A stretch of DNA of 24,804 nt from Hadesarchaea archaeon (GCA_029259185.1 JAPDJF010000020.1:1-24804); one strand, 5' to 3'. Shown: positions 3,432-24,545, numbered from the stretch's first letter. Notes: generated by a model not told the origin, from the sequence alone. Made by a program: numbers and translations.

Positions 3432-3457
3432 TCTCGCTAACCTCCTTCTCTCTTTTT

Positions 3458-3557
3458 GGATATACCAGAAGAAACGTTTCGTTTCTCCAATGGGTCACTG
3501 GCTCGAGGCTCAGAAACCCAGTATATCCTATCTCTCTTTCATCGCATCGTATAAAAA
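3458..3557 (-). promoter_or_regulatory. TATA box (TTTTTATA, 3550-3557) and structured 5' leader of the CxxC-x17-CxxC gene
   Basis: Closing stem GGAUAUAC/GUAUAUCC (3521-3528 with 3458-3465) encloses UGGGU..ACCCA and AGAAACG-AAA-CGUUUCU hairpins. Confidence 0.6.
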
Positions 3558-3602
3558 CCCTTCATGTGGAGGGGCTTTACACCGCAAAAGTTAAATTGAC
3601 TC

Positions 3603-3875
3603 GTGACCTCCTCCCCTCGCTTTCGCAGGGGGCTTCCGGTTGTCCTCTGCACGCCATTGCCGGCAGGACTTTCGGGCGCGGTCACTCCACCGTGGGTGCT
3701 CACGGTAGCGCCCCCGGCGGTTCGGATATACCGAGCCGCCTCAGTCAGGTTCCGACCAGCCTTGCGGCTTTCGCCCGATGCACTTCTATTTCGGAGAGTT
3801 GACCGCCAAGCGAGTTTGACGCCTGCTGGGTGGCGTTCTCCGAAGCCCACGCCCCGTGCGAGAGGGGCATGTTGA
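3603..3875 (-). ncRNA. Putative ~270-nt multi-branched RNA (omegaRNA-like position)
   Basis: Stems CAUGCCCC/GGGGCGUG, UUCGGAGA/UCUCCGAA, and UCGGGCG/CGCCCGA enclosing four hairpins including AGCC-GCAA-GGCU; G-U wobbles favour the minus strand. Confidence 0.55.
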
Positions 3876-3977
3876 TCTCCTTCGGAACCTAACCGGCCAT
3901 TGGTTTGTTGTTTCTCCGTAAATATATCCGCCTCGCTAACCCCTCCATTTCGGAAAGGGACTGCGCTCTGCATTGAG
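3603..3977 (-). mobile_element. Non-autonomous IS200/IS605-derived element (PATE-like, ~375 bp) with structured RNA cargo
   Basis: Right end GAAG-CCCCCTGCGAAAGCGAGGGG-AGGAGG-TCAC, resembling the right end at 21551; left-end hairpin CCCTTTCCGAAATGGAGGGG near 3940-3960, resembling the other left ends; no transposase or tnpB ORF. Confidence 0.75.
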
Positions 3978-4144
3978 TTCAAACCGAGTGGGATCACGCT
4001 TAAGTCCTCGAAAGGGATTACCGGACAAAAAAGCACAATGTTATGAAAGACGTTTCGGCCCTTTATGATTGAATTTCTCTATGCGCAGATTTCTTAAATT
4101 CATCAAAGCTCAATAATCTTGAGGAGAATCCGGTTAAGGAAAAA

Positions 4145-4172
4145 TTTAAATATTTCAAAAATTTTTTAAATA
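4145..4172 (+). promoter_or_regulatory. TATA box plus palindromic operator (candidate ArsR site)
   Basis: TTTAAATA at 4145-4152; TATTTCAAAAA|TTTTTTAAATA (4151-4172, 1 mismatch) lies between the TATA box and ATG 4178. Confidence 0.55.
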
Positions 4173-5835: not shown

Positions 5836-6003
5836 GTGAACTACCCTCCCTCACGGAAGGGACTCCTCCGACCGCACCTTCACAGCTTGGGGAACTCCAG
5901 CACGGGATCCCTTTACGGAGACCTCTGTCCCAGAGGCGTCCCCGACAAAGATTGCGGGCTCTCATCCCCTCCCTTTCGGAAGGGAACCTCCCGCCCGCAT
6001 CAG
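5836..6003 (-). mobile_element. 168-bp IS200/IS605-derived miniature element (left end + degenerate omegaRNA + right end)
   Basis: Minus strand: TTTAA|CTGATGCGGGC...CCCTTCCGAAAGGGAGGGGATGAGAGCCCGC (left end) ... CCCTTCCGTGAGGGAGGGTAGTTCAC (right end; terminal GGGTAGTTCAC shared with 21551-21561). Confidence 0.8.
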
Positions 6004-6032
6004 TTAAATTTTAGGGATTACCTAAATTTTAA
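6004..6032 (+). promoter_or_regulatory. TATA-overlapping inverted repeat, candidate DtxR/MntR operator
   Basis: TTAAATTTTAGG-GATTA-CCTAAATTTTAA (12-bp arms, 1 mismatch) directly before ATG 6034; TTAGG...CCTAA half-sites are typical of DtxR-family boxes. Confidence 0.7.
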
Positions 6033-21550: not shown

Positions 21551-21690
21551 GTGAACTACCCCCAGCTCTCGCAGGGGGCTTCCTGCCTCAGCGACGGAAC
21601 ATGTCCTGCGACCACAGCCGAAGCCGGAACGCGGGGTAGAGGCCCAATCTCCGCAGGCGTTCGCTCGGGCCGTCCCAGCTCCCTATCGAA
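21551..21690 (-). ncRNA. TnpB omegaRNA (reRNA) scaffold; predicted guide begins at 21550 (AUCCCUUUCGGGAAUCUAGU)
   Basis: GGGACGGCCCGA..ACGCCTGCGGAGA..CCTCTAC...GTCGCTGAGGCAGGAAGCCCC..TCAC layout overlapping the tnpB 3' end, as is usual for IS605 omegaRNAs. Confidence 0.7.
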
Positions 21691-22139
21691 TCCCTCAGGG
21701 ATCTGCGAAGTTCCCCTCGGGTTCACCTCCACAAACCGCCTACCAGCGCTCGCAGCCTTGTAGGCGAGCGCGTGGAAGAACTTTCCCCAAGAGGCGTGTC
21801 TGATCCCGACGTCGATCCCGACCGCCTTGCCCGTCTTCGGCAGGGGTTCCAATTCCCCCTCCACCTGAAATATCGCGTACCACTTGCCCGAGCGTTCGCG
21901 CTTGACTATAACCCCCTTCACCTTTCCCTCGATCACCTCGTTAAGCTCCGGGAGCTCGCGCTGCTTCAAATCGACGATGAGGGCCTGAGTATCCGTTCGC
22001 TTCAGCCTTATCCCCTTCTCATGCGCAAAATTGAGTTCGGAGGCAGGCGGTTGTAGAGCCACCTGCAAAGTGCCATGTGTCGATCCAGAGCGCGCTCGGC
22101 TGTCTTTGAAGGATACAGGCGGAACCTATGGCTAAGCAC
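21556..22139 (-). pseudogene. tnpB: tnpB with a frameshift and internal deletions
   Basis: MLSHRFRLYPSKTAERALDRHMALCRWLYNRL, frameshift near 22040, then GKWYAIFQVE, AVGIDVG (RuvC-I), ASWGKF..LAYKA, VNPRGTSQ; RuvC-II and RuvC-III motifs absent. Confidence 0.88.
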
Positions 22140-23850: not shown

Positions 23851-24500
23851 TCAGGCTGTTTCGGGTTCCAAATCTTTAAACCCTGAAACTTCTCCGCTCC
23901 CCTCCGCCGGGTTCACCTCATCGCTTATGCTCGAACACCCCGGCCTCACAGGATGCATCGCGGAGCTATCGGGGTAGCCTGGGATCCCCTCATCCTTGGC
24001 TCTTCTCAGCAGATTTATGCAGGCGTTCACATCTCGATCCAACCCGCACCTAGGGCACTCCTTCAGGGAACCTATCTCGCCCCCGCATCTGGAGCACCAC
24101 TTTGATGTGTCGTGCGGACTGACGTACTCGGGCACCAGCCCGTTGAGCCTGAACTTGTAATCGAGCAGGAACTGAAGGCGCCTGAAGGGCCAAGAGTTCA
24201 GCCTCCGCTTCAAGCGCTTGGATCTTTCCGAAACAGGCTGAACCTTTCCGGTGCGGCTGTTGAAGCGTTTGGACTTCCGGTTGACCGATTTCCTCACGTG
24301 CTTCAGGTTTTCGAGCACGGGCTTTAGTTTCTGATCTCCGCAGAGTGAAGCTATTTTCTTACTCGATTTATGGAGTACGTCGTCCACCCTGCGCTTCTCC
24401 CTCCTGCCGTACTTCGCCATAAGCCGTTTGAACGATTTCGACTCCCTCGGCAGTTTCGCTTGGATGCGCTCCCTTTTCCCGGCGTAGGTCTCCCGTCTCA
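23851..24500 (-). pseudogene. tnpB: 5'-truncated TnpB/Cas12f-like nuclease (C-terminal half only)
   Basis: DDVLHK, VLENL (RuvC-II), RLNSWPFRRLQFLLDYK, VSPHDTSKWCSRCG..CPRCG, DRDVNACINL (RuvC-III); no RuvC-I, WED or REC segment upstream. Confidence 0.88.
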
Positions 24501-24514
24501 AGATAGTATAACCA

Positions 24515-24545
24515 CTTAGCATAAGAGCCTATCTAGACTTGAAAC
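24515..24545 (+). repeat. Single CRISPR-repeat-like sequence
   Basis: CTTAGCATAAGAGCCTATCTAGACTTGAAAC shares ATAAGA...TAGA.TTGAAA with ~30-nt archaeal repeats; only one copy seen. Confidence 0.35.

Follow-up and report, generated by a model that had tools for sequence, protein, structure and literature searches.

The window, by which we mean the whole stretch of DNA analysed here (24,804 nucleotides), corresponds to contig C19 of a metagenome-assembled genome (MAG) of 1.27 Mb (54 contigs, 95% complete) that belongs to a hot-vent archaeon of the Hadarchaeota. At positions 3603-3976 it holds, on the minus strand (from T3976 to C3603), a protein-less element of 374 nt. Four copies of this element are present in the host genome, on contigs C19, C8, C2 and C1 (copies are named below by their contig); they share 94-98% identity, lie in differing flanks, and their comparison allowed us to fix the element boundaries. 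The features referred to in this report are the following.

3977-3981, minus strand: TGAAC, flanking target motif (TAM-like), directly 5' of the left end
3931-3976, minus strand: left end, common to all copies, with an imperfect hairpin at 3960-3940
3926-3919, minus strand: TATA-like box TATATTTA, just inside the left end
3742-3895, minus strand: orphan 5' domain of 154 nt in the MFE and centroid folds, closed by a 14-bp helix (3895-3882 with 3755-3742)
3871-3848 and 3844-3790, minus strand: hairpins enclosed by the 14-bp helix in the MFE and centroid folds
3716-3740, minus strand: hairpin GGCGG-CUCGG-UAUAU-CCGA-A-CCGCC, whose 3' half opens the stretch colinear with a tnpB 3' end of genome G023
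3603-3715, minus strand: omegaRNA-type core, delimited by the HgcC match and by alignment with loci L075, L014 and L074
3715-3709 with 3680-3674, minus strand: core stem 1, with an inserted hairpin at 3708-3687
3685-3681, minus strand: anti-tail GUGAC, beside stem 1
3665-3652, minus strand: GCAA-capped hairpin in GUCC/GGAC, within the core
3631-3613, minus strand: right-end hairpin, within the core
3607-3603, minus strand: tail GUCAC, the last five bases of the element
3583-3602, minus strand: candidate guide flank GAGUCAAUUUAACUUUUGCG, directly 3' of TCAC, present once in the genome and presumed to be transcribed

Ends, copies and putative promoter of the element

As in the IS200/IS605 family, insertion has occurred 3' of a short conserved motif and without target-site duplication: the left flank is TGAAC in three of the four copies and TAAAT in the fourth (related elements follow TTTAAC), the right flanks are unrelated to one another, and no duplication of the target site is visible. 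Imperfect subterminal hairpins that resemble each other, also as in this family, are found at both ends. They are of the CCCC..GAAA..GGGG type, are not accompanied by terminal inverted repeats, and look like those of neighbouring IS605-type elements; in the window copy, a T at 3947, where the others have G, introduces one mismatch in the left-end hairpin. The right end terminates in TCAC (3606-3603, minus strand), and GGAAG, 5' of the right-end hairpin, provides a candidate guide tetranucleotide. A preliminary description of this DNA had announced a protein-less, multicopy element with IS605-type ends and a left-end hairpin, and in this respect it was borne out: the ends, the hairpins (the left one at 3960-3940), the TCAC terminus and the four copies were all found.

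In four vent/marine metagenome runs, the contigs break off at 3976/3981 as well as at 3602/3603 and carry several different flanks. Their coverage rises about 2-6-fold from the flanks to the inside of the element, and none of them joins across the element position as an empty site would. The element has a G+C content of 61%, compared to 39-50% for its flanks and 52% for the genome.

Copy C8 terminates in GGTGAG instead of GGTCAC, and the terminal module is missing from copy C1 and from the copy on metagenome contig L073. Copy C2 is inserted within another IS-derived element, and copy C1 lies, from a reading by eye, at the end of a putative DNA ligase ORF. The right end of copy C2 adjoins a tRNA-like, interrupted stretch (L003, about 1869-1990, contig C2), a flank resembling an intron-bearing tRNA; ARAGORN reported no tRNA beside this copy. 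On contig L073 the left flank is that of copy C8, and the right flank and the variant 3' end are those of copy C1; this may reflect a chimeric assembly at the repeat, in the MAG contigs or in L073 itself, or recombination between strains. Just to the left of the element in the window lies a short repeat (4022-4131), within which metagenome contigs break at 4094-4128. It matches C2:79169-79281 (85% identity, 116 nt) and C1:56063-56100 (38 nt). The stretch 3984-4026 matches in antisense, at 81% identity, the part of the C1-type tnpB that encodes the N-terminus.

No protein-coding gene is present, as in non-autonomous members of the IS200/IS605 family. The earlier statement that the element carries no TnpB coding remnant holds, the best blastx match to the 11 TnpB frames of the host genome (E = 0.41) falling on the terminal hairpin itself. 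With the C-terminus of the G023 TnpB the best match (46 residues, E = 0.039 in a tiny search space) is not significant, and Pfam gave no family for the 165-aa frame through the element or for a 41-aa ORF. A match made by eye, ISEPPGALP to LSEVGALL, was discarded, as it merely reflects DNA colinearity. That the element encodes a small protein from the 41-codon ORF (3745-3870, minus strand) is highly improbable: in the window copy the ATG is preceded at 5 nt by a Shine-Dalgarno-like GGAGAU, but it is replaced by ACG in three of five copies, an in-frame stop lies just upstream, no Pfam family is recognized, and the substitutions, by reading, show no clear synonymous excess.

The TATA-like box reported inside the left end was confirmed in four of five copies, two of which have a 1-nt deletion directly before it; copy C2 carries AAATATTTAT in its place. 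Transcription is predicted to start at about 3897-3900. A decayed autonomous IS on contig C9 (41496-42475) comprises successively TTTTAAC and a left-end hairpin, then GGATATAAT and a tnpA that is broken, and lastly a tnpB with extensive deletions and a right end terminating in GTTCAC. With respect to the left-end hairpin that precedes it, the box of the element is placed as is GGATATAAT upstream of this broken tnpA. As it is placed as in a tnpA-bearing relative, the simplest reading is that it is probably the inherited tnpA promoter. Most elements of family B, described below, have a TATA-like box at the equivalent position.

The 3' module and its relation to tnpB-linked RNAs

At the Rfam gathering thresholds, no match was obtained in the window. 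An E-value scan of 3450-4150 yielded HgcC (RF00062) at 3590-3715 on the minus strand, with 29.4 bits, E = 8.1e-5 and an alignment spanning positions 1-130 of the 130 of the model, while the other four Rfam matches had E >= 1.8. The gathering cut-off of HgcC being 50 bits, a score of 29.4 bits is significant but sub-threshold, and we therefore did not file the element as a member of this family.

HgcC is a high-GC ncRNA of Methanocaldococcus and other hyperthermophiles, the function of which Rfam lists as unknown. The element resembles it by the full-model alignment, the identical tail GAGGAGGUCA, the GNRA-capped hairpin and the terminal hairpin; it differs by its score (29.4 bits against 50), the absence of model stem 3 and a stem-1 loop enlarged by a hairpin, and its RNA would exceed HgcC by about 170-185 nt at the 5' end. 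HgcC-like matches at E <= 0.001 number 10 in six of the 66 Hadarchaeota genomes; the best has 48.6 bits, and the cut-off is reached in none of the 66. Rfam searches of 12 related loci gave tRNA and sub-threshold HgcC only. A self-cleaving ribozyme, suggested by a hammerhead-like core seen by eye around CUGACUGAG, was rejected, since no ribozyme family matched at E <= 10.

One of these 10 matches in the phylum, at locus L075 (genome G023), overlaps with the final ~120 nt of a tnpB gene encoding OrfB_IS605 and TNB domains and interrupted by one frameshift. We therefore consider that the HgcC model marks the position of an omegaRNA. In blastn alignments the element is colinear with L075, from UAUCCGAA to GGGGGCGCUAC, GCCCGAAA(G/C)UCC, AAC and finally the terminal hairpin and tail. 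The element has an extra hairpin in its stem-1 loop, and one compensatory difference can be read from the two sequences (GUCC/GGAC in the element, CUCC/GGAG in L075). Besides L075, HgcC-type matches at omegaRNA sites were noticed at L074 (G015) and on contig C1 of the host genome (38407-38500).

Situated 83 nt from the end, GUGAC (3685-3681) could pair with the complementary tail GUCAC (3607-3603), and a pseudoknot is predicted between the two. The corresponding loops and tails elsewhere are the following.

HgcC consensus and L074: loop CUGAC, tail GUCAG
L075: loop CUGGC, tail GUCAG
L082, L014 and L018: loop GUGGC, tail GUCAC
C1-type tnpB of the host genome: loop GGCUU, tail AAGCC

In RNAs of HgcC type, the stem-1 loop and the final 5-6 nt of the transposon are complementary, by sequences that differ between lineages. 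In an automated test of loop-tail complementarity, the score for the own tail compared to other tails was 6/19 versus 18/114 in a first version and 8/17 versus 31/102 in a second; the third gave 9/20 versus 35/140 (Fisher p = 0.058), a weak result, obtained moreover on rows that are related and not independent. As a rule, loop-tail complementarity is thus only suggestive from this test. In the omegaRNA of ISDra2, a scaffold of 116 nt, nucleotides -5 to -3 pair with -103 to -105 (Nakagawa 2023, PMC10097598). The core of our element is similar to it in its length (about 113 nt compared to 116), in ending at the right end, and in having guide-adjacent nucleotides complementary to a site near stem 1; it is dissimilar in sequence, has no overlapping tnpB, and its pseudoknot is predicted, whereas that of ISDra2 is solved (PMC10097598).

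By its position and architecture, the element is omegaRNA-like. The HgcC match, the colinearity with G023 and the guide-adjacent pseudoknot complementarity lead us to regard the core as an omegaRNA type of ordinary size. This modifies the preliminary description, which had presented the RNA as unlike the canonical omegaRNA: the statement stands for the 5' 185 nt only, as the 3' 113-126 nt match HgcC, are colinear with a tnpB-linked RNA and possess the pseudoknot complementarity. Nor is the scaffold unusually large, at about 113 nt. We agree, on the other hand, that the element resembles the scaffold at 21551-21690 only in 25 nt of the terminal hairpin. The description had also envisaged that a known RNA family, with an ordinary tnpB upstream in longer copies, would remove the novelty; no full-length copy of the element itself was found, and it is in G023 that a colinear core overlaps a tnpB, which is frameshifted. 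The core ends exactly at the right end, 3603 (this concerns position, the transcript being predicted), so that the flank GAGUCAAUUUAACUUUUGCG would serve as guide.

Fold and distribution of the 5' leader

All seven helices named in the preliminary description exist, with 98.4% of 250 cells paired. The five-way junction into which they had been assembled is not the predicted fold: the MFE is -138.2 kcal/mol, versus -134.5 when its helices are enforced (a cost of 3.7). The closing helix of the junction and GGUCGG/CUGACU are each assigned a pairing probability of 0.004, compared to 0.995 for a competing long-range helix of 14 bp (3895-3882 with 3755-3742); the junction also competes with the local stem 1. 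The AGCC-GCAA-GGCU hairpin is complete in the window copy only, a pair being broken in four of five copies.

Folding is better than chance both for 316 nt (z = -3.05, none of 100 shuffles as good) and for the 5' 185 nt (z = -4.00, none of 200 shuffles as good). The plus strand folds equally well (z = -3.99 and -3.17), and structure therefore neither designates a strand nor separates an RNA from inverted repeats acting at the DNA level. Among the 50 pairs of the previously proposed structure and the 77 RNAalifold pairs, none changes on both sides; five near-identical sequences could not be expected to yield any such change.

Such results are compatible with an inert miniature transposon, moved now or in the past by a transposase in trans, whose interior is decaying or hitch-hiking DNA and whose fold arises from GC-rich, DNA-level inverted repeats. 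The equal folding of the two strands (z = -4.00 versus -3.99) and the lack of compensatory changes fit this explanation, as do the restriction of the 5' domain to near-identical copies, the helix broken in four of five copies, and the altered or missing right-end modules of two copies. It has to be weighed against the core, which preserves the layout of stem 1, anti-tail, GNRA hairpin and tail of its tnpB-linked relatives, against the retention of the TATA box in most copies, and against the two substitutions in the 3871-3848 stem, both of which keep pairing (G-C to G-U). We consider the inert transposon unlikely, though it retains real weight.

The 5' leader of 185 nt was found in the host genome and in one near-identical metagenome contig only. 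Sensitive blastn of leader and interior in the host genome retrieved nothing beyond the four copies. In 61 relatives and 66 Hadarchaeota genomes, blastn of the interior gave only matches of 21-57 nt, at chance level or in the right end, and nhmmer, run over all loci collected, matched nothing but the 3' scaffold of a single locus in G048. With a covariance model (R1) built on 3739-3900, only the four own copies were recovered from the 66 genomes (201-208 bits), the best three matches after them having E = 0.38-0.62. Exact-pattern scans returned one near-identical contig among public metagenome contigs, no 5' domain in 185,579 species genomes, one match in a second scan of genome contigs, and no 3'-scaffold motif in viral contigs; plasmid and phage collections contained no match to the interior. 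Given so narrow a distribution, the leader is likelier to be recent than to represent an old RNA class. The suggestion of a new large ncRNA class spread by Y1 transposases finds no comparative support, because neither homologues nor covariation were found: beyond the own copies of the leader, the searches and scans above retrieved one metagenome contig, and no pair covaries.

The closed 5' domain of 154 nt is a discrete unit, whose 14-bp helix starts a few nucleotides from the predicted transcription start and whose folding is well beyond chance (z = -4.0). By reading, the leader differs between copies at about 8 positions in 182 nt, fewer than in the left-end region (about 8 in 84 nt), and long structured leaders also exist in G023 elements. 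One might see in it a functional RNA module, serving for instance to stabilize or process the RNA or to bind a protein, or else cargo in the form of a new ncRNA. With no homologue detected by the covariance model in the 66 genomes, no Rfam match, no covariation, and a distribution that argues for a recent origin, we find this doubtful. To the same low degree we would credit the domain with being a functional add-on to a stand-alone guide-RNA gene, conferring heat stability, processing or protein recruitment. The orphan leader matters only if it is functional, in which case it could be a lead to RNA modules by which TnpB guide RNAs are modified.

Relatives, partner genes and a possible mode of action

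The last 44 nt of the element are found, at 89-93% identity, in elements of 46-336 nt that we designate family B, present in the host genome (contigs C2, C9, C29 and C6) and in genomes G011, G035, G053 and G055. Family B shares with the element the right-end hairpin and tail and the TATA-like box at the left end, the members built in this way measuring about 260-336 nt. The interior of family B goes back to a tnpB of the zinc-finger-less type found on contig C34, namely to its 3' end; in this it differs from the interior of the element, where no such origin is recognizable. Compensatory changes affect 7 of 45 predicted pairs of family B (12 aligned members). The same right end accompanies yet other interiors at L013, L018, L077 and in G023 elements with leaders of ~150 nt, and Hadarchaeota commonly harbour similar elements that bear a promoter, encode no protein and have other interiors. 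At L019:1504-1549 (G052), a minimal element of 46 nt consists of a single hairpin between TTTAAC and GGAGGTCAC, left and right ends being fused.

The host genome carries about 50 ends of IS605/IS1341 type. Its 28 TAGTTCAC-type tails, 16 CAAAGCC-type tails and about 7 GGTCAC-type ends stand against 23 TNB-domain matches, which are mostly fragments, with two genes judged near-intact; derivatives reduced to a guide RNA may therefore be the commonest form in this host. Four extra matches to GG.GG..GTCAC (on contigs C5, C14, C22 and C25) were set aside as chance occurrences, since the right-end hairpin is absent and three of them lie in apparent coding sequence.

Four Y1_Tnp matches were obtained in the host genome. 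The best has an internal stop and belongs to a decayed IS with related ends; the other three are short pieces, two of them of 24 residues at contig ends in this 95% complete genome. Only one near-full TnpB shares the right-end hairpin type (contig C34:2-1120, L060), at a contig edge and without a zinc finger. It lacks the CxxC...CxxC motif, matches positions 1-33 of the 60 of TNB only and reads NPGGTSQNIPEGFDRDY; putative RuvC aspartates are still visible by eye. Another TnpB, at C1:38446-39126, is closest to the G023 protein (47% identity) but has a different RNA tail.

In our opinion the element is rather probably a non-autonomous PATE/MITE of the IS200/IS605 family that bears an omegaRNA core. 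It is a variant of known selfish DNA rather than a new RNA class. The stand-alone, self-promoted, mobile guide-RNA gene of the preliminary description keeps its protein-less and multicopy nature, its TATA box and its omegaRNA-type end, and loses its unusually large scaffold.

What we observe is the anatomy of the element, its copies, the kinship of its core with a tnpB-linked RNA and the placement of its promoter, homologous to that in a relative; transcription, loading onto TnpB and, if there is one, a role for the leader are what we infer. The element would have originated by loss of tnpA and tnpB, leaving the left end with its promoter, the 185-nt leader and the omegaRNA core of ~113 nt. 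Transcription driven by the left-end TATA box would proceed through leader and core into the flank and yield a guide RNA. If this RNA were taken up by a TnpB made from another locus, empty TGAAC-flanked sites with a match to the flank could be cut, whereupon the element would be copied back by recombination; a Y1 transposase acting in trans might move it as single-stranded DNA. Candidates for the TnpB are the contig C34 type, which belongs to the same hairpin family, and the C1 type, 47% identical to the G023 protein and provided with its own tail. Against the PATE reading, the host assembly has no clearly intact genes for a partner transposase or TnpB.

PATEs, known from haloarchaea and Geobacillus stearothermophilus, are like the element in their IS200/IS605 hairpin ends, the absence of a protein gene and the presence of several copies. 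The right end of a PATE is described as encoding an omegaRNA that is necessarily used in trans (Meers et al. 2023 preprint, PMC10055086), and a stand-alone guide used in trans is thus already in print. PATE-derived RNA has been reported as expressed in Halobacterium (Gomes-Filho 2015, PMC4615843). The element is unlike PATEs in the 185-nt structured leader, devoid of detectable relatives, between promoter and core, and in its Hadarchaeota host.

The novelty is modest and lies in the long orphan leader, in the Hadarchaeota host, and in an explicit interpretation of HgcC-type RNAs as putative omegaRNA cores with a loop-tail pseudoknot. The element would illustrate that a TnpB transposon can shrink to a promoter and a guide RNA, the TATA box of the transposase position being left directly upstream of the omegaRNA. 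HgcC, with its function listed as unknown, would be tied to the omegaRNA position at tnpB 3' ends, and the family could be annotated in this way. The tetraloop of the IS1341 right end was noted in HgcC by Gomes-Filho 2015 (PMC4615843); within the literature searched, this paper, which predates the discovery of the guide function, is the only one to mention HgcC and TnpB together. If the 5' domain were a functional add-on, which we find doubtful, Hadarchaeota would more generally hold promoter-equipped, protein-less guide-RNA genes with long lineage-specific leaders, which outnumber intact tnpB genes and would exploit TnpB in trans.

Other IS-derived sequences reside in the window. On the minus strand, 21551-22130 is a tnpB remnant of the zinc-finger-less contig C34 type that has suffered an internal deletion, and 23851-24522 is a C-terminal tnpB fragment of another type, related to C5:15820-17016. 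Also on the minus strand, 5836-6020 is a protein-less IS605-type element of ~185 nt, composed of TTTAAC, a left-end hairpin, a short interior and a right end terminating in GGGTAGTTCAC; its left-end hairpin is nearly identical to that of the element studied here.
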